Of a stretch of 64,000 nucleotides of DNA, positions 28,966 through 54,912 are shown piece by piece; the stretch's first letter is position 1, and every line of letters begins with the position of its first letter. Made by a program: the position numbers and the translations under genes. The DNA lies in assembly GCA_944383275.1 (NCBI GenBank), contig CALWOV010000003.1:29827-93826 (forward strand). The letters run 5' to 3'. This stretch comes from an uncultured Clostridia bacterium. GTDB taxonomy: Bacteria; Bacillota; Clostridia; Christensenellales; UBA1242. The notes beneath the pieces are model-generated. The model was not told where the DNA came from and did no database searches. It saw only the letters and a list, made by a program, of their open reading frames with translations.

Positions 28966-28974
28966 AGTTTTCCC

Positions 28975-29793
28975 CTATCGAAGATTATAATATGGTCTTG
29001 TATCATAGCGAGTAATATCGTAATGTTCAAAAATTTTTGTTACTGCAAAAATGCACACATAAGGAATTATAAACAATAGCGAAATTGTGTTAAACAAAAA
29101 TTCTAATTTTAACAAACACCCCAATATTGCAAATACAACGCCAACTAAAATAGGTATTAAAATTCCTAAAAAGTTTTTAAATGATTTTTTGTGAAGTGCT
29201 GTGCTTGCGTTACTTAATGCCACGCTGAATGGTGAGCCCATTATTGCCATATCTACACAAGTAACCGACAAAATTGCAAGAACCCACGCAAATGCAAGAT
29301 ATACAAGTAATGTTATTATTGCACAAGCAACAAGCCCAACGACCCAAGAAATTTCATTTATAACAACAATAAAATGTGCAAGCAACATTAAAAGCACGCC
29401 AACAAGCATAAGCAGAAAATAAGATATAAAAATAAGAGCAGATATTAAAAGCACACTTAAAAAGTTGTTATTAAGTTCAGTGGTTTTTAATGAATAACTA
29501 AACTTGCCTGTTCTAAAATGTGATTCAATCTTACCTAAAATAAGACTTACAAACGCGGTGCAAACAAAAATTCCAACAATGAAAAACAACAATGTTAGCC
29601 AATCTATTGCAAACACGGCATTAAAAAAGTCAGCAAATCCATTAATTTCAAGAGTGTTATAGTTCCATAGAAAATTTATAGATTGAAATGGGTTTAACAA
29701 AACCCCAATATATATTGCAGGAATTAATGCAAAAATTAGCATTGGAATTATGTTTTTAAAATAATATAAAAAAGTTGATTTAACAAATTCCAT
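28975..29793 (-). CDS. Polytopic membrane protein, unknown function
   Basis: 272 aa with 6 or more hydrophobic segments; its short polar C-terminal tail resembles that of the neighbouring gene. Confidence 0.5.
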   Translation of the reverse strand: MEFVKSTFLYYFKNIIPMLIFALIPAIYIGVLLNPFQSINFLWNYNTLEINGFADFFNAVFAIDWLTLLFFIVGIFVCTAFVSLILGKIESHFRTGKFSYSLKTTELNNNFLSVLLISALIFISYFLLMLVGVLLMLLAHFIVVINEISWVVGLVACAIITLLVYLAFAWVLAILSVTCVDMAIMGSPFSVALSNASTALHKKSFKNFLGILIPILVGVVFAILGCLLKLEFLFNTISLLFIIPYVCIFAVTKIFEHYDITRYDTRPYYNLR

Positions 29794-29826
29794 AATTTTT
29801 ACACCACACCTTAAAATATTTGTTTT

Positions 29827-29855
29827 AAATTAAAAGTTTGACGAACACTCGTCAA
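29827..29855 (-). promoter_or_regulatory. Candidate promoter with palindromic operator
   Basis: Perfect palindrome TTGACGA-ACAC-TCGTCAA (29838-29855). On the minus strand TTGACG acts as a -35, followed by a 17-nt spacer and a weak -10 TAATTT, upstream of the 29793 start. Confidence 0.35.
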
Positions 29856-30010
29856 TAATTATAAACAAAAAAATTGCTTAACTTTTCTTATATATTATTA
29901 TATAGAATAAACAAAACAAAATCAAATATTTTAAAGTAAATTTATAAATATTTTATTATTTTTTAACCACTGTTAAATTTATGTTAGCACAAAACTTTAT
30001 TTTTGTCAAC

Positions 30011-30042
30011 ATAAAATAAAAAAGGAACCATATGTGGTTCCC
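30011..30042 (-). terminator. Rho-independent terminator
   Basis: GGAACCACATATGGTTCC hairpin followed on the minus strand by TTTTTTATTTTAT, about 20 bp after the stop at 30063. Confidence 0.7.
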
Positions 30043-30062
30043 ATTTTAATTTAATATGTTAG

Positions 30063-30866
30063 TTATTCAAAGTTTATTTGTGCTTTTTCTATATTATTTA
30101 ATTCATTGTTTTTATCGACAAAAACATCGTTTTGCTGGCAATTTTCTGCCTGCTTGTCAAAATTAACTAAACCATTTTCTGCAATAATACTGTTATTTTC
30201 TTCATTTGAATTTACAATGGTTTCAGTTATATAATTTTGATTTTCATTATTATTAATGCTCATAGAATAATCATTACTGTTTGCATTTTCTAATGAATTA
30301 TCATTTATAACTGTTTCAGTTAAACATTCAGAGTTCGTATTTACCTGACTTTGTTGTGCGTCATTAAATTCTTTAATTTCAGTTGTTAAGTTTTCTGTAT
30401 CTTTTTCAGCATTTTGATTTATATCGGTTATATTATCATTGTTTTCTAAATTTATATTTTCATTAGTAAAGTTGCTGTTTATTTCGTTTTCAACCATAAT
30501 ATTTTCTTCACTATTTTGGTTAATTTCATTGTATAAATTTATTTCAGCATTTTGCTCTGCACTGTTATTAACTATTGTATTTTCTGAATTGATAATGTTT
30601 TCAGTTTCACTTATATTGATATTTTCCATTTCTTCCTCACTTTTAATATTTTGATTTTCATTATTATTTTGCGTGGCATTAGGATATGTTAATATTCCAA
30701 GAACAACAAATATACCTAATACTGCATTAATAATTGACATATAAATTTCTTCATTTATATTAAGCCCTAAAGGTTTACCTATGGCTTGAACAAGCAAAAA
30801 GATGGCACTTGCAAGTGATAGCCAAAAACTGTAACTTTTCTTTTGTTCATTAAAATTAAACTTCAA
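30063..30866 (-). CDS. Membrane-anchored N/E-rich low-complexity protein
   Basis: Two N-terminal hydrophobic helices followed by about 190 aa of Asn/Glu/Ile-rich low-complexity sequence. Confidence 0.45.
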   Translation of the reverse strand: MKFNFNEQKKSYSFWLSLASAIFLLVQAIGKPLGLNINEEIYMSIINAVLGIFVVLGILTYPNATQNNNENQNIKSEEEMENINISETENIINSENTIVNNSAEQNAEINLYNEINQNSEENIMVENEINSNFTNENINLENNDNITDINQNAEKDTENLTTEIKEFNDAQQSQVNTNSECLTETVINDNSLENANSNDYSMSINNNENQNYITETIVNSNEENNSIIAENGLVNFDKQAENCQQNDVFVDKNNELNNIEKAQINFE

Positions 30867-31071
30867 AGCCTACACCTCCTTATTTAATTTAAAATTTACT
30901 TTTTATATTTTTATAAATAACACTTAAAAATTAAAATTTATTAAAACTTCTTTATTTTTATTTAACAAAATTAATATATTGATGATTTTAATCTGCTATT
31001 AAACTTTATAAAAGTAATAATAAAAATTTTTAAACATAAATAAAACAGATAAAAAATTACTAAAAGCAATT

Positions 31072-31884
31072 TTATTTTCGTGTATTGTTCCAAGTTAAAA
31101 CATTGTTATACCAAGGTGTTCCGATTGTATCAATTAATTCTTGTTTACCACTGCTTAAAATAGACGCTGCTTCTGACTTGCTTTTTTGTGCTAAATAATT
31201 AATTAAAGTTACTGCCTTATGTTGTTGAACTTGGCTGTTTATGTTTGATAGTTCGTTGTTGATACTTTCATATGTATAAGCATTTGAATTGCTTTGTTCC
31301 ATTTCTTTTGTCAAACTTGCTATTTCATCGTTTAATTTTTTAGCATAAGCAATATCAAAATTTTCAAGAGCATTTTCTTTTTGTGTTTCAAGCAATTCTT
31401 TTTGGAATTGTAAAGAACTCATTTTTATATTATTTTCTTCTTGCAAATCTTGTAATTCAGATTGATAAGTTGAATTAATTTTGTTTAAAGTGTTATCAAA
31501 AATACTTGAATTTCTCCACCCTTTTTCAATAGAACCATAGTTTAAACTGTTTGTTGCATTAAGTTTTTCTGCATCTAAATCTTCGACATCGTCTTGATAG
31601 TCTTTTTGTGCTGTAGCAATTTTTTCATCTAATTTAACTTGTTTTTCGCCATATTTAGCTTCAATAGATTCAATATTGCTTGTTTTATATTGATTTAAAT
31701 TTTGTTCGGCTTGTGCTTTTATGTTGCTTGCTTGAGTGTCTAACTCGTTCTTTTTTGTTAACCATTCGTTAATTCTTGACTCATACATTTTGTCTATATT
31801 ATTAAATTCTTTTTGAATTTCAGAATTTATTGTAAGTTTAGGTAAAGAAGATGCTGAAACTGTTTTTTCAAATTTTTGTGCCAT
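31072..31884 (-). CDS. Coiled-coil structural protein (phage-like), unknown role
   Basis: Last gene of the cluster. The start at 31884 (MAQKFEK) is preferred because GGAGGTG lies 7 nt upstream; the longer ORF to 31980 overlaps the previous gene. Confidence 0.4.
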   Translation of the reverse strand: MAQKFEKTVSASSLPKLTINSEIQKEFNNIDKMYESRINEWLTKKNELDTQASNIKAQAEQNLNQYKTSNIESIEAKYGEKQVKLDEKIATAQKDYQDDVEDLDAEKLNATNSLNYGSIEKGWRNSSIFDNTLNKINSTYQSELQDLQEENNIKMSSLQFQKELLETQKENALENFDIAYAKKLNDEIASLTKEMEQSNSNAYTYESINNELSNINSQVQQHKAVTLINYLAQKSKSEAASILSSGKQELIDTIGTPWYNNVLTWNNTRK

Positions 31885-31957
31885 ATAAGCACCTCCATTT
31901 ATATAATAATTTTTATCATTTATTTGATTAATTAAAAATTTAACATAGTTTTGAGAA

Positions 31958-33529
31958 CTATATTTCGTCTTTAAAGGCATAGTTTAAAACCCCGTGTAAT
32001 CTTCTAAAATATGCATTTCTGCTTTCAAAAAAATATTGACCTTCTGTTACATATCTTTCCTTTGACACTTCTTTTGTATCTAAATTTAATTCTTTAGTGT
32101 AAATTCTTCCTACTCTTGAATAGTAAAATCTAACAATGTTATCAAACAGTGTTGCTGTTACATTTTTACCTGTTCCGATATAAAGTGCAGACTCGTAGGC
32201 AGGAGTTAAAAAGGAACTATTTGTTGGAGTGGTTATTGTGTTGTTATAACAAGGAAGAATATAGAATTTATCATTTTCCCCGTAAAACCCCGGAATACAA
32301 AAATAACCATATTTATTATCTTTAATATCAAAGACACTAAATGCACCATTAACTTCAGATAAACCTGTTGTTAAATACCCCCTGCTGGTTATCCTAGATG
32401 AGTTATCTGTTCCCATTGGAATGAACGACACTTTATCTTTGGTATCGTTTTTTATATGCGCAAACACAATACCCGCTATGTAATAACGATTTATATCATT
32501 GTCTGAGGTCTGTCCTATAGTTAAAGTTGTTCCATTCATTAAATAATCGTTGTAATTAAAGATTTCCACCCCAGTCCACCAATCCACTTTATAATCAGGG
32601 TCTATTGTTGATGTTTTAAACCAAAAACTTCCTAATCTTAAAAAATTGGTATTTGTTATAACCATTATTACAGGTCTTGAAAAATACTGTCCATTTGTAT
32701 CTTTTTCATAACTAGGAAAAATTTGAAAATGCTTTATTACAGTATTAGTTGGAATTAAAAAGAAACCTGATGCAGCTTTTAAATCTGTTTCATTAAGTTC
32801 TGTTTCTGTTTTGTTATTTTCGTCAACAAATCTATTTTCAGCATAACGAGGTCTATATTTCATAAGATAAACCCCATATCTATCTGATGGTATTTCTGTT
32901 AAATGTGTTGGCGATTTATATGCTGGGCAAACAAGTTCACCAAAGTTGTTTTCAAAGTTAAATGCTTCGTGTCCTATTAACTCGTAATGTAAATTTTCAA
33001 GCGAAAAACGAACATTTGTGTTATTTGAATCTTTTGTATAATGATAAGTTTTTAACTCTATTATTGATGGTGTAGAATTAGCAAAGAAATTATATTCAAA
33101 ACTATAAACATCAATGTTATCAGAAAAACTAAACGAATTTTCGTGAATTAATTTACTATCAAAATAAAACTCTACCTTCCCATCACCACTTTCACCAGAC
33201 ACATAACTTTTTATGTCATAAACCACTTTTAATCTTGCAACTGTTTCTTTTTTGACTTGTAGTTTTGCAACAAAATAAGTAGCATCGCTTGTAAGTCGTG
33301 CCTCAAAAAAATAGTTTGTAAACACTTGAACTATATCGTTATCTATTTTATTAAATATTTCAAAGTTTCGTTTATCACGCTTATCTAAAAAAATATTATT
33401 TTCTTGTAAAGAATTTATTTCTTTTTTTACTTTAATTATTTCATTATTATTAACTTCATTTACCTCTTCCATTTCATCTATAAGTTTTAACGCTTTATTT
33501 CCATCGGTATTTTTAAAATTATTTTGCAT
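31958..33529 (-). CDS. Phage-like structural protein (candidate tail, fibre or receptor-binding)
   Basis: 523 aa, beta-rich, aromatic/Asn-rich composition; position distal to the adaptor. Confidence 0.4.
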   Translation of the reverse strand: MQNNFKNTDGNKALKLIDEMEEVNEVNNNEIIKVKKEINSLQENNIFLDKRDKRNFEIFNKIDNDIVQVFTNYFFEARLTSDATYFVAKLQVKKETVARLKVVYDIKSYVSGESGDGKVEFYFDSKLIHENSFSFSDNIDVYSFEYNFFANSTPSIIELKTYHYTKDSNNTNVRFSLENLHYELIGHEAFNFENNFGELVCPAYKSPTHLTEIPSDRYGVYLMKYRPRYAENRFVDENNKTETELNETDLKAASGFFLIPTNTVIKHFQIFPSYEKDTNGQYFSRPVIMVITNTNFLRLGSFWFKTSTIDPDYKVDWWTGVEIFNYNDYLMNGTTLTIGQTSDNDINRYYIAGIVFAHIKNDTKDKVSFIPMGTDNSSRITSRGYLTTGLSEVNGAFSVFDIKDNKYGYFCIPGFYGENDKFYILPCYNNTITTPTNSSFLTPAYESALYIGTGKNVTATLFDNIVRFYYSRVGRIYTKELNLDTKEVSKERYVTEGQYFFESRNAYFRRLHGVLNYAFKDEI

Positions 33530-33532
33530 ATT

Positions 33533-35032
33533 TTAAACCAAATTTATTTCTAATTGAGGATTGGAAATATTGCAAGTATCATCTTCACTTATAAATGAAA
33601 TTGAAAAAAGTTTAGCCCTTAATGAAAGAGGTATTTTAATTGGTTTATTACTTCCCATTACCGAAAATTTATATTCTTTTTCTTCTTCTGTTTTAATAAT
33701 TACTGTTATATCACCTTTACTTAACAAGCATAAATTTCTTAAAACTTTGGTTTTATCTGGATAGCCCATATCTGTTTTTGGAGATGTCCATACCTTTTTA
33801 CTTACAGTGTCAAAAATTTTACCAGAATGTGTAAGTTCGCCTAATTTATTTTGATACTGCGTTTTAAAACACGCAACTAATTTACTTGTTTTGTCTATTT
33901 GAATAGGCCTTAGGGCGCAAATATCTACGCCACGCATAATTAAATATTCCCCAGAATTTATATCAAACTCTACTAATGCATTATTCTGATAGCCCTGTGT
34001 GGCTTCACAACCTATTTGCTGACCATCACCAAAATCTAGTTTACAAGCAAGGTAATATTTCCCATCTAAAAAACCACCAATTGCATTGCTGTTGTCAAAC
34101 TTTGTTATCATATCAACAAAGCCTGCATCAATTTTGCTAAAATTTATCCCATCAAATGAATATAGACCATCTCGACATAACATTAAAATTATATCTCCAC
34201 ATAAAATTGCAGATTTTTCATATATTCTTGAATTTGAAAGTGCTAAATGTTTTATTGTAAAATCGGTTTGTTCCCCATAACCTGACACTCTTGAAATACC
34301 AAATTCTCTTATAATGTAAAGATAATTTTTATAACTTATAACATTATTAAGCCCACCACGCTCGTCATTAATTTCTATGTAACCACCATCAAATTCGCTT
34401 ACATTCCAATTACACGGGTTTGTTTCATCAGAAAACCAAAGTTCATTTTTCATATTTCCAACTGTTGCAAAAAGCCTGTTTGCGTGAGTTGCCAAAGTGT
34501 TGATTTTGGGTGTGTCTGGATATGACACAGGGAAATTTTGCCCGTCCCACGCAGTTAGTTGGTCATTTTCGTTATTACTACAAAATACTATTCTGTTTCT
34601 GCCATCAATATACATATTTATGGCAACCGGTTCACTGTTAAAAGTTAGATTAAGCAATTCATAAAAATTGGTATCAGTTGTATACATTGGTGCCCAATAT
34701 AATTTCTTTTCACTAGTGTAAAAAACTAAAACAGGTTGAAATTCTTCATATGTTTTATTATAGTTATTAAAAAACCAAAAATTTTTTATTTCAGAAACCG
34801 TTGACGGAACTGACATTGTTTTTGTTACATCACCTACTGTTATTGTTAAGTCTTTAAAACCAAGACCATTTGTTAATGCACCAGAACTGAAATCATAGTT
34901 ATAAGTTTGCCTTGCTATGTTTAAAGGTAAAATATTTTGTTCCGTTTTAGTATCAACACCATTTAAAAAGTTTGAAAGTTTAACTTGCAAAACAGTATGT
35001 TCGTTTATAGGTAAAATATCACGATAAAACAC
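33533..35032 (-). CDS. Phage-like structural protein (candidate tail, nozzle or baseplate)
   Basis: The ORF is open to 35116, but AAGGAGGTG lies 8 nt before the GTG at 35032, which overlaps the upstream stop (TAGTG coupling); about 499 aa. Confidence 0.45.
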   Translation of the reverse strand: MFYRDILPINEHTVLQVKLSNFLNGVDTKTEQNILPLNIARQTYNYDFSSGALTNGLGFKDLTITVGDVTKTMSVPSTVSEIKNFWFFNNYNKTYEEFQPVLVFYTSEKKLYWAPMYTTDTNFYELLNLTFNSEPVAINMYIDGRNRIVFCSNNENDQLTAWDGQNFPVSYPDTPKINTLATHANRLFATVGNMKNELWFSDETNPCNWNVSEFDGGYIEINDERGGLNNVISYKNYLYIIREFGISRVSGYGEQTDFTIKHLALSNSRIYEKSAILCGDIILMLCRDGLYSFDGINFSKIDAGFVDMITKFDNSNAIGGFLDGKYYLACKLDFGDGQQIGCEATQGYQNNALVEFDINSGEYLIMRGVDICALRPIQIDKTSKLVACFKTQYQNKLGELTHSGKIFDTVSKKVWTSPKTDMGYPDKTKVLRNLCLLSKGDITVIIKTEEEKEYKFSVMGSNKPIKIPLSLRAKLFSISFISEDDTCNISNPQLEINLV

Positions 35033-35598
35033 TAGAACCACCTCCTTGGTGGCATTTTTACTCCACTTTTTTTGCGTTGTGCCACAAGCATACTTTGAGC
35101 AAACTTTGTGTCCCAAGCACTTGCATCAGAAAACAAACCTTTATAAAGGAAATATCTTGCAACAACGCCGTTAGCAAATGCATAGTCATCTATTTTATAA
35201 GACACATCTATTGTGTCTGTTAACTCTTCAATAAGCGCAGGAGCATAAGTGTATGTGATGATATAATTACCATTTGAACATTCAATAAAAGTTGGAAAAG
35301 TGTTATATTTTTGTTTTATTCCATTATTGTTTTTCACAGAAATTAGTTCTATTAAATTTTTTGATAAATCGGAAAAATTAAATTTATTATTAGAAATTGT
35401 TATATTTTCAGTTGTTTTCAATGGAATATACATAAAGGCTATTAAATGATTTACATCATTAATACAACTTATTATTTGATTTATTTGTGCTTGCTGGTCT
35501 TCTGTTGAAGTTGAAGTTCCACCAAGTTCTGTTATTTGCAAAAGGTTGTTTAAGTTTAAATGCTTGCACACTAGTTTTACTATATCTTTAACAATCAT
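35032..35598 (-). CDS. Candidate head-tail adaptor / connector protein
   Basis: 188 aa; lies after the capsid genes; N-terminus (IVKDIVKLVCKHLNL) resembles gp6-type connector starts; start at 35598 preceded by AAGGAGA. Confidence 0.4.
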   Translation of the reverse strand: MIVKDIVKLVCKHLNLNNLLQITELGGTSTSTEDQQAQINQIISCINDVNHLIAFMYIPLKTTENITISNNKFNFSDLSKNLIELISVKNNNGIKQKYNTFPTFIECSNGNYIITYTYAPALIEELTDTIDVSYKIDDYAFANGVVARYFLYKGLFSDASAWDTKFAQSMLVAQRKKSGVKMPPRRWF

Positions 35599-35609
35599 TT
35601 CTTCTCCTT

Positions 35610-35987
35610 TTAAACCCATCTATCTTTATAGGCATCATTAAAATTTACATCATTATTTTTCTTGTTTGCATAGTCATACATTTCTTTAAGTTTCCACCTT
35701 GCTTCATCATTTTGTACTCGTTTAATCTCTTGTTCTAGTTTTTCATTATGAATTTCCATTTCTTTTATTAATTTATCAGCATTTTCTCTTCTGGTTTTTC
35801 TAACATACGGAACCAGCCTTGCGTCAATTTTATTAAATGGAACAACCAAGCAAAAAGTTTGTTTTTGCCCTGAATTATGCACTTCATATCTTTGTTTATT
35901 TGTGTTATATACAATAAAATAGTTATTATCTATTGCTTTTAGTCTTGATAAAATATCAAAAACATCTGTTGTTATATTTACTAACAT
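35610..35987 (-). CDS. Hypothetical phage-like protein
   Basis: 125-aa ORF between the capsid and adaptor genes. Confidence 0.4.
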   Translation of the reverse strand: MLVNITTDVFDILSRLKAIDNNYFIVYNTNKQRYEVHNSGQKQTFCLVVPFNKIDARLVPYVRKTRRENADKLIKEMEIHNEKLEQEIKRVQNDEARWKLKEMYDYANKKNNDVNFNDAYKDRWV

Positions 35988-36002
35988 ATTACTTCCCTTT
36001 TA

Positions 36003-36031
36003 CAAATCAAGGGTGAGCAAAAGCCCACCCC
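36003..36031 (-). terminator. Terminator/attenuator-like hairpin after the capsid genes
   Basis: On the minus strand, GGGTGGGC-TTTT-GCTCACCC followed by TTGATTTGT, directly after the stop at 36040. Confidence 0.45.
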
Positions 36032-36039
36032 TGATAAAA

Positions 36040-37206
36040 TTAAGATGCAGTTATTGAAAGTTTGCCTTGTCCACCTGTTTTATCACAAATAAGTTCAGCA
36101 TATTTTACCAATGTTGCAGTGTGAATTGGGTATCCTTCTTTTTGTTTCAAAATTCTGCCGTTATCAGAACTTAACCATTCCCAATCACAAAGTTGATGAA
36201 TTTTAAAATCTTTACTGTTTAAAAAGTAAACTTCACCATCTTTAGCGAAACGGTCGGCAACAAAAGGAATACCATTGAATGATATGGTTTTATATCCACC
36301 CTCAAGATTTAAAATGTCAACATTTAATTTATTTGCTGAAAGTTTTTCTTGGTATAATCTTCTTGCATCAAGTGCACCCATTATGAAGTCTATTTCTGAA
36401 CCTTTTTGTTCAGACAATGTGTCTAGAACTTCCATAAAAGATGCTTCTGTAAAATTCGCTTTTGTAACAGATGCACTGTAAGGTTTTAAAAATGGATAAG
36501 TAGTAACCGAGTTACCATAAAGTGTTGCACCTTCAAAAATCGACTTTAAGCCTGTAATTTCTTTATCTTTACTTCCCTGCACATATAAAGATACAGTTTT
36601 TTGAGTGTTTGCCATATCTTCTGTTGCAGCATCACTTAAAGTTATTGTTTTTGTGCCGAAATCACAATTAAGAATTCTTGTTGTATGTGAATAAACGCCA
36701 TCTACATAAATATCAACCATCATTCCTATCATTAAATTTTTAATACTGTCAACTGTGAATGTATAAACATCTTTTGCTGAAGAATTTCCAGACGCTAAAA
36801 GCCCTGTTCCATCTCCGTAAAGCATTCTACTCATATTAAATTTGCTCGCTTCTATCATTCCTTCCATTTCGGCTGTAAGCAAATTTACAAAAGCACCAGC
36901 CTCTGACGAAGATGCACGCAAAGCCTTGTCTGAAAGTTCTATTGTTCCATAAAGGTTTTTTAGCGTAGAGGTTAGCAACAAGTAATTATTAAAGCCACTT
37001 AAAGGCAAAGCACCCACTTCTGTTCCTGCACCAATTCCACCATTAACACCATATGGAACTAATTTTTTTATCGCTTTTCCAACAACATCTTGGCTTGTTT
37101 TTTCAAGTTTTGACAAAAATGGGTGTGTTTTTGTGTTAAGTTGATTTGCTACAATACCAAGATACATAGTTTTAAGCGCTTCATTTGCTGTTTGTAATGT
37201 AACCAT
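36040..37206 (-). CDS. Major capsid protein paralog 2 (presumed HK97-fold)
   Basis: 388 aa, immediately after the scaffold and paralog 1. Shares N- and C-terminal blocks with paralog 1 (LKNLYGTIE, AGAFVNLLTAEMEG, SRMLYGDG, HQLCDWEW, LKQKEGY, TLVKYAEL). Confidence 0.65.
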   Translation of the reverse strand: MVTLQTANEALKTMYLGIVANQLNTKTHPFLSKLEKTSQDVVGKAIKKLVPYGVNGGIGAGTEVGALPLSGFNNYLLLTSTLKNLYGTIELSDKALRASSSEAGAFVNLLTAEMEGMIEASKFNMSRMLYGDGTGLLASGNSSAKDVYTFTVDSIKNLMIGMMVDIYVDGVYSHTTRILNCDFGTKTITLSDAATEDMANTQKTVSLYVQGSKDKEITGLKSIFEGATLYGNSVTTYPFLKPYSASVTKANFTEASFMEVLDTLSEQKGSEIDFIMGALDARRLYQEKLSANKLNVDILNLEGGYKTISFNGIPFVADRFAKDGEVYFLNSKDFKIHQLCDWEWLSSDNGRILKQKEGYPIHTATLVKYAELICDKTGGQGKLSITAS

Positions 37207-37224
37207 AAATTCCCCCTTTAAATT

Positions 37225-38403
37225 TTAAGATAAATTAGTAAGTTTAGCTTGTCCTGCTGGTTTTGAACACATAAGTTCGGCATATTTTACCAAGGTTGCA
37301 ATAAAACTTGCATAGCCTTCTTTTTGTTTTAAAACAGAACCATCTTCATTGCAAAGCCATTCCCAATCGCAAAGTTGATGCATTGCAAAATCATTTGTGT
37401 TTAATAGATACATTGTTCCAGATGGAATAAATTTATCACTTATCATAGGAATTCCATTGAAACTTAAAGTTCTATAGCCACCTTGTAAATTCAATGGTTC
37501 TAAGTTTGCTCGTTTTTCCATTAAAAGTGATGCGAATTTGCGTTTTAATGCACTTGTTGTTGCAATAAAGTTTATTTCATTGCCCGTGCGTTCAAGCACT
37601 GTATCTATTGCAGTTTGAATGTATATATCGTTAAATGTATCACTTGTGGTTTTAGATTTTGTATAAGCGTTTATCCAAGGATAAGATGTTCTATTTACAC
37701 CGTAAATTGAACCTGTAGTTTCGAATATTTTTTCGATACCTGTTAATTCTTGGTCTTTACTGTTTTGCATATAAACTTTGTAACTAGATGCCGATGTTGC
37801 AAATTCGGTTGTAACAACAGTTGATAAAGTTATTTTTTTACTTGCTCTATCAATGCTTGCAATTCGAACTCCACAAAAACCAGAAACTTTAGAAGTGCCA
37901 TTATAAAAATCGATAACCATACCTTCTAAAAGTTTGCTAACATCGTCAACTGTAATTTCATTTTTTGATACATTTGCAGAAGATACAGAGCAAAGACAAC
38001 CACTGCCATCACCATATAACATTCTGCTTAAATTAAACTTACTTGCTTCAAGCAAACCTTCCATTTCGGCTGTAAGCAAGTTTACAAAAGCACCAGCATC
38101 ATCTATTGATGCACGCATTGCTTTATCTGAAATCTCTATTGTTCCATAAAGATTTTTTAGTGTTGATGTAAACAACATATATTTATTTTCTGCACTTTTA
38201 GGTAGAATACCACCTTCATCACCAGCGCCAACACCACCATTAACACCATATGGCGCAAGTTTTTGAATTTCTCTGCCATAAACATCAGAAGTTGTTTGTT
38301 TTATCTGGTTATAAAGTGCATTTGTGTTTGTGTTTAACTGATTACTTACAACGCCAAGATATACATCTTTTAAAGCGTTTTCAGCAGTTTGCATTGTTAC
38401 CAT
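37225..38403 (-). CDS. Major capsid protein paralog 1 (presumed HK97-fold)
   Basis: 392 aa, directly downstream of the scaffold gene; size and position typical of an MCP; conserved blocks shared with paralog 2. Confidence 0.65.
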   Translation of the reverse strand: MVTMQTAENALKDVYLGVVSNQLNTNTNALYNQIKQTTSDVYGREIQKLAPYGVNGGVGAGDEGGILPKSAENKYMLFTSTLKNLYGTIEISDKAMRASIDDAGAFVNLLTAEMEGLLEASKFNLSRMLYGDGSGCLCSVSSANVSKNEITVDDVSKLLEGMVIDFYNGTSKVSGFCGVRIASIDRASKKITLSTVVTTEFATSASSYKVYMQNSKDQELTGIEKIFETTGSIYGVNRTSYPWINAYTKSKTTSDTFNDIYIQTAIDTVLERTGNEINFIATTSALKRKFASLLMEKRANLEPLNLQGGYRTLSFNGIPMISDKFIPSGTMYLLNTNDFAMHQLCDWEWLCNEDGSVLKQKEGYASFIATLVKYAELMCSKPAGQAKLTNLS

Positions 38404-38414
38404 ATATAAAACTC

Positions 38415-39137
38415 CTATTTACTAAAGATTTTTTTTGCCAGTTCTTTTGCTTCTTCAAGTGTAGTTGCTGATTTGATTTGATTTTCAAAATTAACTCCAT
38501 TATTTGAATTTATAAAAGTTGGCACATTAGGTTTTGTGCTGTTAACTTGTTTTAAATAATCTTTTATAACAGCATCACGAACTTTGTTGTTTTTTAACAC
38601 TTGATTAAAATTAGTTTCACTTTCCAAATAATTCTGGTTATTAACAAGTTGCTGTTCTAGAAATTTTAACCAAGCATTATGCAAGGGGTTTTGACTTTCT
38701 GCAATAACCTTATCTTGCAAAATTAGATTAGAGAGTTCTTTTGCATATTCTTTTGCGCGTGGATTTTCTTGCAAGAAATTTTCTACATAACCTTTCCATT
38801 CCTTTTTATCAAATAAATTATTTGTAGATGCCCCTTGCATTTCTTCTTGTTTTTGTAAACTAGACAAAAGTTGACTTTTGCGAGTGAACTCTTTTTCTAA
38901 ATTTTCATAAGCATTTTTTAAAGATTCAACATCTTTAAATTTTCCTAATGGAGAACCATCGGGTAATGGTTGCTCTCCTGTTTTTTCTTTTATATTGCTA
39001 TTATTTAGTGCATTTTCTATGTTTTTTAAAGAATTTTTATCTTGTTCTATGATATTTGGTTTTAAATTTATATTTTTAATATTTAAGTTATTTTCATTTT
39101 GTAAACTTAAATTTGGTGTATTTTCAACAATTTCCAT
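38415..39137 (-). CDS. Candidate scaffolding protein
   Basis: 240 aa, acidic, helical and low-complexity; lies between portal and capsid. Confidence 0.5.
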   Translation of the reverse strand: MEIVENTPNLSLQNENNLNIKNINLKPNIIEQDKNSLKNIENALNNSNIKEKTGEQPLPDGSPLGKFKDVESLKNAYENLEKEFTRKSQLLSSLQKQEEMQGASTNNLFDKKEWKGYVENFLQENPRAKEYAKELSNLILQDKVIAESQNPLHNAWLKFLEQQLVNNQNYLESETNFNQVLKNNKVRDAVIKDYLKQVNSTKPNVPTFINSNNGVNFENQIKSATTLEEAKELAKKIFSK

Positions 39138-39148
39138 AAAAAATTCTC

Positions 39149-41038
39149 CTAATTTTCAAAAACTTTATTTGCTTCTTGTTCTAGTTTTTTAAACTGTTTA
39201 TGTTCCCTTATATGTTTCAAAAGCATATCTTTTAATTCGGCATTTTCTTTACACGCTTTTTCGAAATCTCCACTTAACATAAAATTTATGTGTTCATTAA
39301 TATGTAAATCGTGATTATGAATTTCTAAAACTTCACATTCCTTTTTATTTAAAAACTCAATATTTTCGCGCTTTGCTTTCTGAATTTGTAAAGTGTTTTG
39401 GTCAAGAGCATCTTCCCACATTCCAAACCCAAGCATTTCCAATGTCTTGCTTCTTAATGAATTAGACATCTTTCCGTTCTCATCTAAAAGCAATCCGGAA
39501 TTTAAAAGTTCAAAAACCATATTTCTTTTTTGAGCCACAGTTTGACCAAGTTCAGATTCTGTTTCAAAAGCAATTTCATCTGACGATATATTTCCCCTGT
39601 CCCAATAAAAGAACTCGCTTGCACCGTTTTGCCCAACCACTCGCCCCATTCGATTAGTTGTTGCAAATTGTTTATATAATCTTAATATTTGTTGGGCAAC
39701 CATTTTTAAAGCAAAACAAATATATTCTCCACTTGCAGAAATTCTAGCCTCTTCTTGTTCAATTAAAATTTGCAATGCAACTCCACTCATACTACTTATA
39801 TTTGTTGAACCACCAAGCAAATCACTAACCCCACTTACAGTTATAAATTCACTTTCAAGTCTTTGCTCTTCTTCGGTAAAGTTTGCAGGAACAGAATCCG
39901 TTGCTAATATTTTAGGAGTATTTGAACCTTGTCTGTAAACCAAAACTTTTCCAGGACTTAACCCCTCTTCCTCCAACTCATCAATATCTATAGAGCCATC
40001 TTCTACGGTTAAAATTCCCATAGACAGCCGGTTAATAAATTCGTGTTTCCTATTTTTTATTGCGTTATAAGCGCGTTGAACAGGTATCATTCTTTCTATA
40101 ACACTTCCCCCCCAAAACAAAGATGGTTGTTCAATAGAAATTTGTCGCACAAAAGGAAAACCTCGTTCCCCATATTTTAAATTTTTATAAGGTAATTCAC
40201 CATCGAACACAAGTTTATCACCAGCAACAATAACCAATCTTCCATTTGGGAATTTTTTACTAGGTTCTTCATATCTTTCTATAACCATAGCAGAATCTTT
40301 TTGTTTAGTTTTTTGAAATTTTGAAATATATAATTGATTATCAACAAAGCCATCTGCCTGGACGCTTGACAAAGTGTAGATATCTAAATCTTCGCCTTCA
40401 AGTTTTATACCCCAAACTTTTTCTATTGTATCTACCGAAAAGGGTTTTGCGTGTATTATACTTTTACAATAATTTATATCTGCACTTCCGTTACTGTCTG
40501 GATATATTTCAAATGGAGAACAAACCATAACATCTACATCACCTTCATAGATTCGTTCACCATATGGCGTTATTCCAACAACAGAACCCGAACTGTTATT
40601 CCAAACTATTTTATAAAATGCCGTTCCACAAATTTCACTCCATCTAGTTGCTTGAGAAATTAATTTACTCATATCAAGTTTATTAGATATTGATTGCAAA
40701 ATATTTTTACTAACTTTTGCATTACTTAAATCATCTTCATCAGAACTTGCTGGAAGAACTGTCATGGTTGGTCTTACTTTTGCAAGTTTTGCAATTCTAC
40801 TTTCTAATATTGGTGCTATATGATTGTAAACTTGTTTTTCTTCCCAAAAATATTTTTTATCAATTTCGTTTTGTATTTGACTTTGTGTTACTTCACAATA
40901 CTGATTTCCTAAAACAAAATTTAAGTTTAATTGCCATTGTGTTTCAAAAGGTTTTCGTGCTTCATGCCTTTTTTTAAAATCATTCCAAACATCTTCAACT
41001 AACTCTTTTTCATAATCTTTTTTATTTGTGTTTTTCAT
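39149..41038 (-). CDS. Phage portal protein
   Basis: 629 aa; N-terminal pattern RKPFETQWQLNLNFVLGNQY is typical of portals; lies after the terminase. Confidence 0.8.
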   Translation of the reverse strand: MKNTNKKDYEKELVEDVWNDFKKRHEARKPFETQWQLNLNFVLGNQYCEVTQSQIQNEIDKKYFWEEKQVYNHIAPILESRIAKLAKVRPTMTVLPASSDEDDLSNAKVSKNILQSISNKLDMSKLISQATRWSEICGTAFYKIVWNNSSGSVVGITPYGERIYEGDVDVMVCSPFEIYPDSNGSADINYCKSIIHAKPFSVDTIEKVWGIKLEGEDLDIYTLSSVQADGFVDNQLYISKFQKTKQKDSAMVIERYEEPSKKFPNGRLVIVAGDKLVFDGELPYKNLKYGERGFPFVRQISIEQPSLFWGGSVIERMIPVQRAYNAIKNRKHEFINRLSMGILTVEDGSIDIDELEEEGLSPGKVLVYRQGSNTPKILATDSVPANFTEEEQRLESEFITVSGVSDLLGGSTNISSMSGVALQILIEQEEARISASGEYICFALKMVAQQILRLYKQFATTNRMGRVVGQNGASEFFYWDRGNISSDEIAFETESELGQTVAQKRNMVFELLNSGLLLDENGKMSNSLRSKTLEMLGFGMWEDALDQNTLQIQKAKRENIEFLNKKECEVLEIHNHDLHINEHINFMLSGDFEKACKENAELKDMLLKHIREHKQFKKLEQEANKVFEN

Positions 41039-41176
41039 ATTTATCTCCTTAAATTTTTTAATATTAAAACAGCAAAATATGCTGATTGTTTTTAATAAAT
41101 TGATTAAATTTTATTATTTTTAATGCTTTTTATTGTTTTATTATAAATTTTTATCTTTAATTATGATATTTGATAT

Positions 41177-41467
41177 TTACTTTAAAAGCTTTAAAAGTCG
41201 TTGTTTTTCGTTTTCCAATTCTTCATCTGTATAATTTTTATAATCTTTATTTTTATCCCAGAACAGTTCAAGCAATGCTCGTGCTGCTGGTATATCTGGT
41301 GGTATATGTTTTTTTGTAACTTTTCTTTTAGTTAATGTAAGATTATCCTCATCTGTTTTTGCATATTCTTCAACAATTTCATCAACCGAATATCCCATTG
41401 CTTTTTTTAATAATGCTTTAGTTAATTCTTTATTTTCTTTATCATCTTTCAACTTATCATTACTCAT
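41177..41467 (-). CDS. Small DNA-packaging accessory protein (possible small terminase-like)
   Basis: 96 aa, charged, with an HTH-like segment (KAMGYSVDEIVEEY) and an IPPDIPAARALLEL motif; overlaps the TerL stop; unusually downstream of TerL. Confidence 0.35.
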   Translation of the reverse strand: MSNDKLKDDKENKELTKALLKKAMGYSVDEIVEEYAKTDEDNLTLTKRKVTKKHIPPDIPAARALLELFWDKNKDYKNYTDEELENEKQRLLKLLK

Positions 41468-42938
41468 AGTCTTCTCCGTTGAACAACTTTTCTATTTTGT
41501 TTTTTAATCTTAGTCTATATCTATTTTGTTTGGAAATTAATTTATCTTTATGTTTTTGTATGCTTGTTTTTATGGTTGCAATTTTAGGAACTTCAGGTCT
41601 TGACATAACATAATATCTTAATTCATCTAAAGCGTGGTCATCTTTTTTTATTGGAGCATCATCGTTACCCCACCAATATGCTTTAATTTCTCTTATTAAG
41701 TTTACACAATTTTTAAAAATGAAAAGTTTTGTTACGCCATCGCTAGAACGCAATAAACTTTTCACTCTTGATATTCCTGAAAACAAATCTTTATTAACAT
41801 TGGTATTCACATTAATTCCATATTCATAAAACAACTCTGCCACACTTTTACTGCTTGCTAAAGTTTTTTGGTTTGCGGCAGAATCTATTAACGCCGAGAT
41901 TTTTCCATTAAAAGTTTTCCATTTAAGTTTTTTACAAATTTCTTTTATACAAATTGAATGTTCTTCAACCGTTTTGTTTGAAGCATAATGTTCGGCAATT
42001 ACATAAATATTTCCATCATAATCAACAGCATACCAATGCGCACTTAATGGGTTATGAAGGCCTGGGTCGATTGAAATATTATCATACCAATCAATAGGAA
42101 CTTCGAATGGTTCTATAACGTGAATTGCTGGGTCAAACTCGTTATAAACCATTCCACCATGCCCAACAAATTTTCCATACCTTCTACTATCCAACTCATC
42201 TTCAGACAATAACCTTGACATCTCTTCAATTTCATTTTTATCAAGATAAGGGTTATCTGCCCATTCCATATTTATCGTCCAAATTTGTGGGTCTTGTTTT
42301 TTGTTTAAATATATTTCTTCATAAACCCAAGTTAAGCCTTTAAGTGGTGTCATCGTTCCAAATATTTCACCTTTTCTATCTAGAACACGCATTTTACATT
42401 CAAGATAAATATCATAGGGTGGTTCTTCGTCAAACCAAACAAAATCTAAACTTGTTCCTTGAAATTTTTCTCTACCTTGGTCGCAACTTTTAAATGCTAT
42501 TTTACTTAAACTTCCAAAAACATTTCTTATTAATATATAGTCAATTACACCATTTTCTGGGTCATCTTTTCTTCCTGACAACATAATTATTTCGACTATC
42601 CAATCGGGATTTAAAAAGGATAAAATTTTCTGTTGAGCAACATCTCGTTGAACCTGTGTGCTAAGCGATACTACCCAGCAACTTATTGGTTTGTTTTTTC
42701 TAAACGGGTGATTTCCTCTTGCAAGCCAAACGGTTTCTGCTGCACCGCACTGACTTTTACCACTTCGGTTTCCACCAAATACCCACCTATTTTTTGATAA
42801 GCATTTATGAAATTCGATTTGCTTTAAATGAATTTTATCACCAGTGTTATAGTTTTTCATTCGGTCATTATTGATTCTGCGTTGCTGTTCATTTTCAATT
42901 TTTTTTATTTCTAAAACTATGTTGTTTAAGTCATACAT
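41460..42938 (-). CDS. terL: Phage terminase large subunit
   Basis: Walker A GGNRSGKS, Walker B LDFVWFDEEP, C-terminal RNaseH-like nuclease region (SIDPG ... DDHALDELRY); RBS AAGGAGAA. Confidence 0.9.
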   Translation of the reverse strand: MYDLNNIVLEIKKIENEQQRRINNDRMKNYNTGDKIHLKQIEFHKCLSKNRWVFGGNRSGKSQCGAAETVWLARGNHPFRKNKPISCWVVSLSTQVQRDVAQQKILSFLNPDWIVEIIMLSGRKDDPENGVIDYILIRNVFGSLSKIAFKSCDQGREKFQGTSLDFVWFDEEPPYDIYLECKMRVLDRKGEIFGTMTPLKGLTWVYEEIYLNKKQDPQIWTINMEWADNPYLDKNEIEEMSRLLSEDELDSRRYGKFVGHGGMVYNEFDPAIHVIEPFEVPIDWYDNISIDPGLHNPLSAHWYAVDYDGNIYVIAEHYASNKTVEEHSICIKEICKKLKWKTFNGKISALIDSAANQKTLASSKSVAELFYEYGINVNTNVNKDLFSGISRVKSLLRSSDGVTKLFIFKNCVNLIREIKAYWWGNDDAPIKKDDHALDELRYYVMSRPEVPKIATIKTSIQKHKDKLISKQNRYRLRLKNKIEKLFNGEDYE

Positions 42939-43020: not shown

Positions 43021-43056
43021 AAACAATAATTGCACATGAAAGCACAATTATTGTTT
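43021..43056. promoter_or_regulatory. 12-bp-stem inverted repeat between terL and the divergent gene
   Basis: AAACAATAATTG-N12-CAATTATTGTTT. On the minus strand it is followed by TTTATTGC (terminator-like), about 85-120 nt upstream of the terL start. Confidence 0.4.
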
Positions 43057-43905
43057 GATAAAATTAAACAAGGTGATATTATGATAAAAGTTTTAGTTTT
43101 TGTTTTATTTTTATTATTTTGTATGCCAACACAATATGGCGTGGTGAATGCTGAAGAATTATATACCCCTTCTTATTATAGAATTGAAAGTTCTAACTGT
43201 TTATTATATCGCACAGAACAAGATAATCAAGATATTTCAAATGTTTGGTTTTTATTACCCAAAACATATTTTGTTCAAGTTCTAGATGAAAGTGATGAAC
43301 TGTTTTTTAAAGTTAAGTATCAAGATTTTATAGGTTATGTTTTTAAAACAGATGTTTCAGCTGTTTATGAAACGCCACAATATCCTTGGGCTGATAATTT
43401 AACTTTTGATATAAATGGAACAGCAAATGTTGTTATTCGTTCAGCACCGTCAAGTGATAGTGCATATTTAGGGCTAATTCCATTTAATGCAACAAGTGTT
43501 ACTTATCACGGAAGCATTGTTGGAGATGAAGCACTAAGTGGGCTTGGCAATTCTTGGTATTTTGCGACTTACACAAGTTTTGAACAAGGAATTATAAGTG
43601 GTTATGTTTATGCGCCTTTAACTCAAAATTTAACAGTAATTCAAGATAATACTGAAGTTCTTAGCACAGTAAAGCCATCTAGTGGAAGTGAAATCATTGA
43701 TGAAGTTATTTCGCCAGAACTGCAAAATGGTCAAAATTTATTGATTATTGGTTTATTAAGTTTAGTTGGAATTGCTATTTTACTTTTACTGTTTAGACCA
43801 AAACGCAAATCAAAAAAAGCAAAGCAAAGCGTTAAAGGAACACAACTAAATCAATCAAATAACAATAAACAATTTTTAACATTTGATGAAAGTGATAATT
43901 TTTGA
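43030..43905 (+). CDS. Secreted, C-terminally membrane-anchored protein with two SH3b-like domains
   Basis: Probable start at 43081 (MIKVLVFVLF signal peptide). Two SH3b-like segments, a C-terminal TM helix and a basic tail (RPKRKSKKAK). Confidence 0.5.
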   Translation: MHMKAQLLFDKIKQGDIMIKVLVFVLFLLFCMPTQYGVVNAEELYTPSYYRIESSNCLLYRTEQDNQDISNVWFLLPKTYFVQVLDESDELFFKVKYQDFIGYVFKTDVSAVYETPQYPWADNLTFDINGTANVVIRSAPSSDSAYLGLIPFNATSVTYHGSIVGDEALSGLGNSWYFATYTSFEQGIISGYVYAPLTQNLTVIQDNTEVLSTVKPSSGSEIIDEVISPELQNGQNLLIIGLLSLVGIAILLLLFRPKRKSKKAKQSVKGTQLNQSNNNKQFLTFDESDNF

Positions 43906-44460
43906 TTACTTGTCAAAATAAACTGATTGTAAAATTGGATTTTTAAATTTAATTTTTTGAATATTGGTTTCAATTTTCAAATTATGATATTTACTTGAAA
44001 GTTTGCTTACATTATCATTATACATTCCAATAAGCCAACTTTCTTTTGCAAACATTTTTTCTAAAACATTATAAGAATAACCATTTTTAATAAAAAAATC
44101 TACAGCCATATCAAGCCCTTTATTAATTCTTCGCTGTAAAGTTCTTCGGCTTAAATTAAAAATTTTTGCAATATCTACCTGCGAATAGCAATCTATAAAA
44201 AACAAAACCAATAGTTTTGAAAATTCTGGGTCAATAAAATTTAAGCAATCATCTACTAGCGATTTTATTAACAACAAATTCTTTTTTCTTTCAATTAAAT
44301 TGATAATGGTTTCAGTTAATTCCAAAGTATCATCATAGCCATATGTATGCAAATGAGACATTATACTTTGCTCGTTAACCCTGTTATCTATTGCCTTATT
44401 TACCATATTAACAATGTTATAAGATTGTAAAATAGTTTTTAACCACAATCTTCCTTTCAT
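43906..44460 (-). CDS. Sigma-70 region-4 / ArpU-like transcriptional regulator
   Basis: 184 aa. The segment LLVLFFIDCYSQVDIAKIFNLSRRTLQRRINKGLDMAVDFF resembles the region-4 HTH of small phage late regulators and group-5 sigma factors. Confidence 0.5.
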   Translation of the reverse strand: MKGRLWLKTILQSYNIVNMVNKAIDNRVNEQSIMSHLHTYGYDDTLELTETIINLIERKKNLLLIKSLVDDCLNFIDPEFSKLLVLFFIDCYSQVDIAKIFNLSRRTLQRRINKGLDMAVDFFIKNGYSYNVLEKMFAKESWLIGMYNDNVSKLSSKYHNLKIETNIQKIKFKNPILQSVYFDK

Positions 44461-44624
44461 TTTACTCCCCCTTTTTTGTAAAAAAATAAATCACATTATA
44501 AAAAATCGCACAAAGGCATTACATTTCTGCATATTACTATATCAATTCGACATTTGTCAATACTCCTGCGCTATATTTTTGTAAAATATTTTACAAAATT
44601 AATTAATTTTTTGTTCAATTTTTT

Positions 44625-44647
44625 AGAACATATGTTCGATTATAGCA
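44625..44647 (-). promoter_or_regulatory. LexA (Cheo) box next to an extended -10 promoter facing the regulator gene
   Basis: AGAACATATGTTCG (44625-44638) matches 13 of 14 positions of CGAACATATGTTCG. On the minus strand it is directly preceded by TGCTATAAT (44639-44647). Confidence 0.6.
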
Positions 44648-44862
44648 TATCAAATATGACATCTAGCGTCAAATTTAATTTAAAGAGATAAAATTTTAAA
44701 AACTTTTTTATTTGAATTTTTAAATTATAATTTTAAGAGAAATTTTTAAATATTAACCTAAAATTTATCAATAAATTTTAAGTAAAAATTTTGTCCAAAA
44801 TATTATTAATATGTTTGAAAAAAACGAAAATTCTGCTATAATATATAATTAGAGGTAAACTT

Positions 44863-47000: not shown

Positions 47001-47726
47001 TTATATTTCATAAGAACTAAAATTGTGGTGCAATGGCATTTCTATATCATAATGGTCAACGCCTTTATCTAGAACACGGTCAACATTGTTTTCGGTTGAA
47101 ACTTTACCAACAGATACTTCGAATGCTGTTCTTGTTTCAATATCGTTTTCATTAATTCTTTTTTGATATTGACGACTTTGAATTCTACCTGTTAAATATA
47201 TTTTTTCACCAACAGAAAGTTCACTTACAAATTTTGCATTACGCCCCCAAGCAATGCAAGGGAGATAATCTGATTTATTGTAGGCACGATTTACTGCAAG
47301 CAAAACATCACAAATTTCACGCTTGAATGGTGTTGTTCTAAAAATTGGTTCTTTACAAACATAACCAACTAATTCAATTATATTTGAATTAAGATTAGGA
47401 ATTGGTTCGCAAATTTCTCGAACAAAAACAGTAAGCATAAGTTTACTTTTCCCATCTACCATTTTATTGTAACTTCTAAACTGCCCTTTTACTGCTATTT
47501 GTGTTCCTATTGCCATATTTTTTTCTGCAAACAATCTTTCTGACACAGTTATTGGAATTATATCGCATTGTTCAGAAAGTCTTGGCACTTCTAGATTTAT
47601 ATCATAAAATCCTTCCCCATAAATTTCGTGGCTGAAAACTGGTTCACACACAATTTTCCCACATAAATAAACTCTGTTGTTTGTTGATAATTCAAAATTC
47701 ATAAAAAATTTTCCCCCGTTTTTCAT
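47001..47726 (-). CDS. SSB-like protein with two OB-fold domains
   Basis: Two segments with the SSB pattern (NRVYLCGKIV.EP...; NIIELVGYVCKEPIFR...LAVNR...CIAWGRNAKFV...GEKIYLTGRIQSRQY). Probable start at 47702 (MNFELST). Confidence 0.55.
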   Translation of the reverse strand: MKNGGKFFMNFELSTNNRVYLCGKIVCEPVFSHEIYGEGFYDINLEVPRLSEQCDIIPITVSERLFAEKNMAIGTQIAVKGQFRSYNKMVDGKSKLMLTVFVREICEPIPNLNSNIIELVGYVCKEPIFRTTPFKREICDVLLAVNRAYNKSDYLPCIAWGRNAKFVSELSVGEKIYLTGRIQSRQYQKRINENDIETRTAFEVSVGKVSTENNVDRVLDKGVDHYDIEMPLHHNFSSYEI

Positions 47727-54502: not shown

Positions 54503-54542
54503 AGAACATATGTTTGACTTTTTGTTTTTTTAGTGTTATAAT
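54503..54542 (+). promoter_or_regulatory. Sigma-A-type promoter overlapped by a LexA (Cheo)-type box
   Basis: -35 TTGACT (54514-54519), 17-nt spacer, -10 TATAAT (54537-54542); AGAACATATGTTTG (54503-54516) overlaps the -35. Confidence 0.65.
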
Positions 54543-54579: not shown

Positions 54580-54912
54580 TTGACAATTTCAATATTAATG
54601 GGAATTATATGGGAACTTTTGCAACATAAAAAACTAACTGCAAAACAAATTTCTGAAAAATATGAAATAAGCATAAGAAGTGTTTATAGATATGTTGATG
54701 CGCTGTGTTCTAGTGGTTTCCCTGTTATTACATATGTTGGCAAAAATGGTGGAATATCTATTGAGCCAAGTTGTATAATTAAAAATAATTACTTTACCAA
54801 AAACGAAATAAATTATCTTTTAGAGCTTAGTTCTAATTCTAATAATCTAAATGATGAAATTAAAAGTTTGAATGAAAAATTAAGATATTTATATATGAAT
54901 AATAATTCATAA
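54580..54912 (+). CDS. Small wHTH transcriptional regulator (YafY/DeoR-type HTH only)
   Basis: 110 aa with a TTG start after AAGGAG; HTH pattern LTAKQISEKYEISIRSVYRYVDAL; no WYL or effector domain. Confidence 0.6.
   Translation: MTISILMGIIWELLQHKKLTAKQISEKYEISIRSVYRYVDALCSSGFPVITYVGKNGGISIEPSCIIKNNYFTKNEINYLLELSSNSNNLNDEIKSLNEKLRYLYMNNNS

Follow-up and report, generated by a model that had tools for sequence, protein, structure and literature searches.

A LexA-type (Cheo) box lies on the distal of two predicted promoters of a putative phage-type late-gene activator within the window, as the whole 64-kb stretch of DNA analysed here is termed, and it probably serves as a host LexA operator that places the activator, and through it the terL operon of a GTA-like element, under SOS control. 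Dozens of related gut Clostridia keep the box on the activator promoter, and particle production is therefore probably induced by DNA damage. As long as the DNA is intact, the -10/+1 region of the TGCTATAAT promoter would be covered by a LexA dimer bound to GAACATATGTTC, and transcription would be blocked. Upon DNA damage, the RecA-stimulated self-cleavage of LexA would free the distal promoter, the 184-aa activator, which resembles RinA, ArpU, LtrA and LtrB, would then accumulate and turn on the terminase-portal-capsid-holin operon starting 1 kb downstream, and particle formation and holin-mediated lysis would follow.

The plus strand of the window at 44623-44647 reads TTAGAACATATGTTCGATTATAGCA. 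It contains the palindrome AGAACATATGTTCG (44625-44638, with no strand assigned), whose GAAC-N4-GTTC core, GAACATATGTTC, occupies 44626-44637, and this is followed by ATTATAGCA (44639-44647), which on the minus strand is TGCTATAAT, the extended -10 element of the predicted distal promoter. The preliminary description had claimed both a near-consensus LexA box at 44625 and an extended -10 directly upstream of it on the minus strand, and the two elements are indeed found at these positions, with TGCTATAAT abutting AGAACATATGTTCG and pointing at the regulator gene. The start predicted 6-8 nt 3' of the distal -10 falls inside the box and gives a transcript that runs toward 43906-44460. The palindrome matches CGAACATATGTTCG at 13 of 14 positions, this being a Bacillus/Clostridium consensus and the LexA of the present order having a divergent DNA-binding domain, and no site as good (at least 13 of 14) occurred in any of 100 shuffles. 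With its AT-rich centre and its C/G flanks, AGAACATATGTTCG also fits the GAAC-N4-GTTC palindrome (CGAACRNRYGTTCG). The bare core, of which there is a single occurrence in the window, is not significant by itself, as 0.42 sites are expected and 34 of 100 shuffles contained at least one. The pattern GAACRNRYGTTY has two sites in the window, both of them intergenic and both on promoter elements.

Several further elements surround the box. A -35 element at the proper spacing for the distal -10 was not found. The -10 itself is either TGCTATAAT or TGTTATAAT in the same-species contigs (L001-L011), the variable position being 44645 and both forms being TGnTATAAT. The palindrome TTGACGCTAGATGTCA (44657-44672, minus strand), of the family TGACA-N5/6-TGTCA, is centred near -32 of the distal promoter. 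Palindromes of this family accompany most box-bearing loci, taking the form TGCCA...TGGCA in two of them (L064 and L084), and may represent an autoregulatory or other operator, the binder of which could be the regulator itself. An extra half-site, TGAACA (44612-44617, minus strand), is situated 8 nt 3' of the box, and a GAACA half-site 8-11 nt past the box was seen both in the window and in four other loci (L053, L061, L017 and L058).

The conservation of the box could be followed beyond the species by way of the terminase. A direct protein search with the regulator returned homologues from the same species only, and therefore other species were reached through terL. Eleven same-species contigs have the same neighbourhood and an invariant box, which is uninformative because nearly all of their sequence is invariant. 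A scan of species-representative genomes recovered relatives on at least 523 genome stretches, and 80 loci of other species, with a terL that is 62-71% identical, were kept which, together with the window, make up a comparison set of 1.38 Mb. The regulator was found by profile search in 68 of these 81 loci, always on the same strand as terL and 1-1.5 kb upstream of it, and with 22-43% identity to the protein of the window. The motif does not occur at random frequency across these loci, a concern raised in the preliminary description, since 25 of the 31 exact GAAC-N4-GTTC sites in the 1.38 Mb are at the regulator promoter, where the background predicts ~0.1 in the 400-nt regions concerned. The remaining six exact sites are intragenic and have unrelated centres.

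For 65 regulators the upstream sequence was at least 250 nt long, and a scan of these gave a raw result of 23 exact and 13 one-mismatch sites. Manual correction added two exact boxes that had been hidden by mis-called gene starts (L016 and L091) and removed two chance one-mismatch hits (L068 and L041), which leaves 25 exact and 11 one-mismatch boxes (e.g., GAACATATGTTT) at 36 of the 65 regulator promoters. All 36 are positioned 0-2 nt 3' of a -10-like (TATAAT-like) hexamer. With the loci aligned on the box, the half-sites hardly vary and form the sole strongly conserved island, the flanks are not conserved and the centre varies (ATAT in 15, AAAT in 14 and others in 7). Near-invariant half-sites around a variable centre point to a protein-binding site rather than an RNA stem. 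The box-bearing loci range from 26 to 55% G+C and belong to many terL clades, the same box-promoter arrangement is present in independent IMG/VR contigs, and the box-less species, ~45% of the total, include one coherent group of clades from which the box is missing. The data support the site as a real conserved operator carrying the canonical Firmicutes/Clostridia LexA motif, with LexA as its predicted binder.

The SOS input appears to be neither sole nor universal, given the proportion of box-less species and the retention of a proximal promoter that has no box. The region upstream of the regulator is 402 nt long, and the second promoter predicted in it, the sigma-A-like TTGACA-18-TAATAT (44531-44560, minus strand), is closer to the gene than the box is. 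The TGGCAGTAnnnTTGACTAT-N17-TATAAT kept in other loci is homologous to it, and the spacer of the window promoter contains a Spo0A-box-like TGTCGAA (44546-44552). Just upstream of this promoter is the palindrome TTTGTAAAATATTTTACAAA (44574-44601, with no strand assigned), and promoter and palindrome are kept together in nearly all species, whether box-bearing or box-less, the proximal promoter being flanked by the TTTGTAAAA/TTTTACAAA palindrome and by Spo0A-box-like TGTCGAA motifs. It must receive other inputs and, being box-free, it would leave LexA to gate the distal promoter only. Hence the earlier claim that the box would block transcription toward the regulator is right insofar as the box covers the -10/+1 region of a promoter that points at the regulator, but a second, box-free promoter is closer to the gene. 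Spo0A-box-like sequences (TGTCGAA / TTTGTCRAA) were also seen to recur in many loci, both ahead of the regulator and ~45 nt before terL, the enrichment of GTCGAA repeats being mild only. No known RNA family was found in the intergenic region.

What binds the box has to be judged largely from the lexA genes of related species. No SOS genes or further boxes were found in the window or in the ~10-20 kb beyond its ends. LexA happens to be encoded 0.5-2.4 kb upstream of the regulator in six box-less loci (L024, L026, L027, L037, L043 and L054), and these six proteins exceed the cut-off of the LexA equivalog model in NCBIfam, with both catalytic motifs (Ser and Lys) retained and Cys-Gly at the cleavage site. 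The recognition helix of this regulator-adjacent clade differs from that of canonical LexA, and its lexA promoters have AAGAAC-N5-GTTCTT and no N4 box. In a metagenome scan, the closest relatives of these LexA proteins (49-61% identical) also came with an N5 palindrome. The scan yielded in addition four LexA at ~51% identity with the gene order lexA - small Zn-ribbon gene - HTH_11 gene, an order seen in three of them, as the contig of the remaining one is too short. In two of them (L095 and L096, at 30% G+C like the window), TAGAACAAATGTTCTA is located inside the lexA promoter spacer and is the sole N4 box of these loci, and the other two have ATATAC-N5-GTATAT at lexA. Most of the more distant LexA proteins come with one to five N4-type sites of the canonical form. 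Judged by these promoter sequences, an N4 box can accompany the genes that encode the LexA proteins of this group. The six species without an N4 box at the lexA promoter are also without a box at the regulator, and this joint absence in the subclade fits LexA as the binder, although one clade carries most of the correlation. On these grounds we infer that LexA is the binder in the window's species, of which GCA_949287445.1 is an assembly.

Other features of the lexA loci are recorded here in their own right. Among the six regulator-adjacent loci and L092-L098, the palindrome just past the lexA promoter changes with the recognition helix, being AAGAAC-N5-GTTCTT, ATATAC-N5-GTATAT or TGAAC-N6-GTTCA, and this could reflect operator co-evolution or a 5'-UTR hairpin. 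The N5-spaced GCGAACCTAGCGTTCC sites downstream of lexA were rejected as operators, as they are the arms of a terminator hairpin. The lexA loci of L094-L098 have no sequence in common with the window and its extensions. Just upstream of lexA, a 131-139-aa protein consisting of the Spo0A C-terminal DNA-binding domain only is encoded in L043 (6796-7191) and also in L024, L027, L054 and L092.

The box is matched in the window by a second LexA-like site, AGAACATATGTTTG (54503-54516, plus strand), which overlaps the -35 element of a near-perfect promoter, TTGACT-17-TGtTATAAT. It is invariant in 10 same-species contigs. Downstream of it, between murG and ddl, is the gene of a 110-aa HTH_11 protein (54580-54912, plus strand), and the site and this gene may be a second member of the same regulon. 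The LexA of C. difficile binds in vitro to the recA operator AGAACAAATGTTTG (PMC4234289), from which AGAACATATGTTTG differs by one central base.

A rather unlikely reading, and the one that survives best among the alternatives, is that the conserved operator is bound by some other dimeric repressor, of the host or of the element, that shares the GAAC/GTTC half-sites, and that the promoter responds to a signal other than DNA damage. It would accommodate the divergent winged-helix domain of the LexA of this order and the several lineages in which the palindrome at lexA is not the N4 box, and the two further conserved palindromes and the Spo0A-box-like repeats show that other factors act in this region. 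A Spo0A DNA-binding-domain-only protein is encoded nearby in some species. Set against this, no repressor gene was found in the cluster, the motif is identical to the LexA operator established by experiment in clostridia and the lexA promoters of L095 and L096 have the same motif. Moreover, no other Firmicute factor is known to recognize a GAAC-N4-GTTC site.

If LexA is the binder, the consequences depend on the regulator that it would control. The gene at 43906-44460 (minus strand) encodes a 184-aa protein with a central sigma-70 region-4-like HTH (residues 77-117). With the Pfam model Sigma70_r4_2 it scores 22.2 bits, below the cut-off of 25.7, and its scores with the ArpU, RinA and sigma models of NCBIfam are all below the cut-off, far below in the case of sigma. 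Among 45 orthologues, Sigma70_r4_2 was recognized in 24 and DUF1492 in 18. A profile search of PDB sequences with the regulator returned sigma region-4 domains only. Its AlphaFold model (pLDDT 79.5, built with database homologues) matches solved structures only via the sigma-4 domain, over 56-73 residues, and compares poorly as a whole protein with ECF sigma structures (TM ~0.3); among predicted viral structures it matches small phage sigma-70 region 4 / DUF1492 proteins over ~140 residues (TM 0.5-0.69). A sigma-2 domain was not detected in the protein, which has region 4 alone, in a central rather than a C-terminal position, and an alternative sigma factor of the ECF type, the TcdR/UviA group or the Xpf type is thereby out. 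What remains of the earlier label, a sigma/ArpU-like regulator, is the sigma-4-like HTH, the protein being neither a sigma factor nor a member of the ArpU family. Its assignment to the late activators agrees with the present analysis, as it appears to be a small sigma-region-4 protein of the type that activates terminase, head and lysis genes. Since the Sigma70_r4/DUF1492 families include proteins shown to be late activators, the regulator is filed as Ltr-like in its predicted function, and not as a sigma factor or as a member of a curated family.

The presumed target of the activator is a particle cluster (30063-42938) encoded on the same strand. Its first gene is that of the large terminase (terL, 41460-42938, minus strand), and the rest, from a terS-like protein to a holin-like protein (30063-41467, minus strand), ends at an intrinsic terminator. 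The cluster encodes a 96-aa terS-like protein, a P22-like portal, a 240-aa protein, two major-capsid paralogues and the holin-like protein. Six of its proteins, the 240-aa protein and five others, belong to no family of known function, with one weak virion-structural match among them. Integrase, repressor, replication and lysogeny genes were not detected in the cluster. The major-capsid paralogues are in tandem (36040-37206 and 37225-38403, of 388 and 392 aa, both phrog_14242), as they are in the same-species contigs. Past the terminator of the holin-like gene there is a separate unit (28015-29793) of two proteins without a family match, and its promoter region (29794-30062) contains the palindrome TTGACGAGTGTTCGTCAA.

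The window is chromosomal, with hrcA-grpE-dnaK-dnaJ, lepA, ftsY, smc, rnc and plsX on one side of the cluster and a two-OB-fold SSB, topoisomerase subunits, murG, ddl and obg on the other. All same-species contigs have identical cluster neighbours, and the neighbourhood is partly common beyond the species. The two-OB-fold SSB-like protein (47001-47726, NCBIfam PRK05813) and a polysaccharide deacetylase are found beside the regulator region in at least three other loci as well (L013, L089 and L091). The terminase is at most 30% identical to that of any of 50,697 sequenced phages and 62-71% identical across at least 523 species genome stretches. Its relatives at 62-71% identity run to thousands, and many of them are on long chromosomal contigs of Clostridia/Christensenellales MAGs. 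The cluster, of ~13 kb, fits a chromosomal, domesticated, podovirus-derived GTA-like element, known here from its genes alone, that appears to be fixed in the chromosome and vertically inherited.

We infer that the activator acts on the terL operon and that the element makes particles. An improbable alternative is that LexA does bind the box but that the regulator drives either itself or the SH3-domain membrane protein whose gene (43030-43905, plus strand) is convergent with its own and is placed between it and terL, the cluster being silent or otherwise controlled. The late-promoter motif common to terL and portal that the preliminary description proposed to look for was not found in the cluster of the window, no convincing motif being shared by the regions upstream of terL, portal and other operon starts, and so no promoter motif in the window links the regulator region to terL. 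What separates the two is this opposite-strand gene and a terminator-like hairpin with a 15-bp stem and a T-run just upstream of terL (43021-43056, minus strand). The hairpin is kept in the closest relatives, with only the right arm retained in L014, and may act either as a binding site or as a terminator through which read-through is controlled. Most of the 81 loci nevertheless retain the order regulator - SH3 gene - terL, a homologue of the SH3 gene being at the same position in 69 of the 80 fetched loci, and members of the same families whose genes precede those of the terminase have been proven to activate late genes. Both observations favour the terL operon as the target.

It is very improbable that the box controls the divergent gene at 44863, which the preliminary description had offered as an alternative target. 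This gene encodes a 636-aa secreted protein and shares with the regulator the 402-nt intergenic region that contains the box. It has its own promoter, TTGAAA-16-TGcTATAAT (44815-44842), ~180 nt from the box, and the -10 beside the box faces the opposite way. Homologues were found in only 8 of 80 loci, whereas the box tracks the regulator, and because the divergent gene is not conserved the box is taken to belong to the regulator. The promoter of the 44863 gene also uses TGCTATAAT as its -10 (44834-44842). Least probable of all, to the point of being negligible, is that no protein binds the palindrome, which would have arisen by chance in AT-rich DNA or would be a hairpin at the 5' end of the transcript. 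A single exact GAAC-N4-GTTC in 64 kb is nothing unusual taken alone, but positional conservation in 36 species, with invariant half-sites, a variable centre and no compensatory variation, is the opposite of what is expected of an RNA stem, and a stem of 4 bp would be unstable.

The preferred reading, LexA control of the terL operon through the activator, bears on elements that have come to light only recently. An element of this kind, FpGTA, has been described in Faecalibacterium, and GTA-like packaging has been seen in Christensenellaceae, for which no gene cluster or regulator was named (PMC12946183). A tentative proposal, possible but open to more doubt than the cascade itself, is that the present cluster is the gene set behind the Christensenellaceae packaging and is LexA-gated via its Ltr-type activator, and that the LexA of one subclade has switched to an N5 operator with a changed recognition helix, this subclade having lost the regulator box and carrying lexA beside the element. 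If true, gene transfer or lysis in one of the major groups of gut commensals would be set off by DNA damage, for example from antibiotics. The model, if it holds, would provide a simple switch for particle production in an abundant and barely cultured gut order, leading from LexA to an Ltr-like activator and on to a terminase/capsid operon, and would tie DNA-damaging drugs to lysis or gene transfer in these bacteria; the recently reported GTA-like elements of gut Clostridia have so far had no regulator described. The box-bearing and box-less clades constitute a natural experiment, and the data point to LexA proteins with an apparently changed operator.

The box resembles the LexA boxes of Bacillus and Clostridium (GAAC-N4-GTT[CT]) in its 12-bp core, AT-rich centre, preference for C/G flanks and overlap with core promoter elements. 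It differs from them in that the promoter it occupies is that of a phage-type activator and not of a repair gene, and in belonging to an order whose LexA has a divergent DNA-binding domain. Among GTAs, RcGTA has a LexA dependence that is indirect only. The cluster is similar to GTAs (FpGTA, PMC12946183; RcGTA; CcGTA, PMC11150451; and the GTA-like PBSX) in that it is a ~13-kb terL-portal-capsid-lysis cluster, chromosomal and widely conserved, with podovirus-type parts and without replication or integration genes; it differs in that it is a cluster known from genes alone, FpGTA for its part being without a described regulator.

The activators of the Ltr superfamily of Gram-positive phages, which comprises RinA, ArpU, LtrA/sigma70_r4, LtrB/DUF1492 and LtrC (Quiles-Puchalt 2013, PMC3753634), have their genes directly ahead of terS, and the expression of packaging, head and lysis genes depends on them (PMC3753634). 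The regulator of the window is like them a small protein, with a predicted HTH of the sigma-region-4/DUF1492 type, that is encoded upstream of terminase genes. It departs from them in its central HTH with ~65 extra C-terminal residues, in scoring below every curated family cut-off and in having an opposite-strand gene between it and terL. The control also differs, as phage ltr is controlled via the CI repressor and here a LexA-type box is found on the promoter of the gene. UviA, which acts on bcn in C. perfringens, and Xpf of PBSX are DNA-damage-inducible small regulators that switch on a killing or particle module, and both are genuine sigma factors with sigma-2 and sigma-4 domains. The UviA family is described elsewhere (PMC4885068). 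The window regulator has in common with UviA and Xpf the proposed role of a DNA-damage-inducible small regulator of a killing/particle module, but it shows a sigma-4-like domain only.

Host LexA is used directly by coliphage 186 (tum), CTXphi and the Bacillus phage GIL01. Operon I of SaPI is likewise repressed directly by LexA, according to Ubeda 2007 as cited in PMC3753634. What the window would share with these four systems is the direct gating of a phage-derived element by host LexA, with no CI-type repressor encoded by the element. They are mobile, whereas the element of the window is apparently fixed in the chromosome. Direct LexA control of phage-derived modules and Ltr-type activators are both already well known, and here LexA would act one step further up, on the activator.
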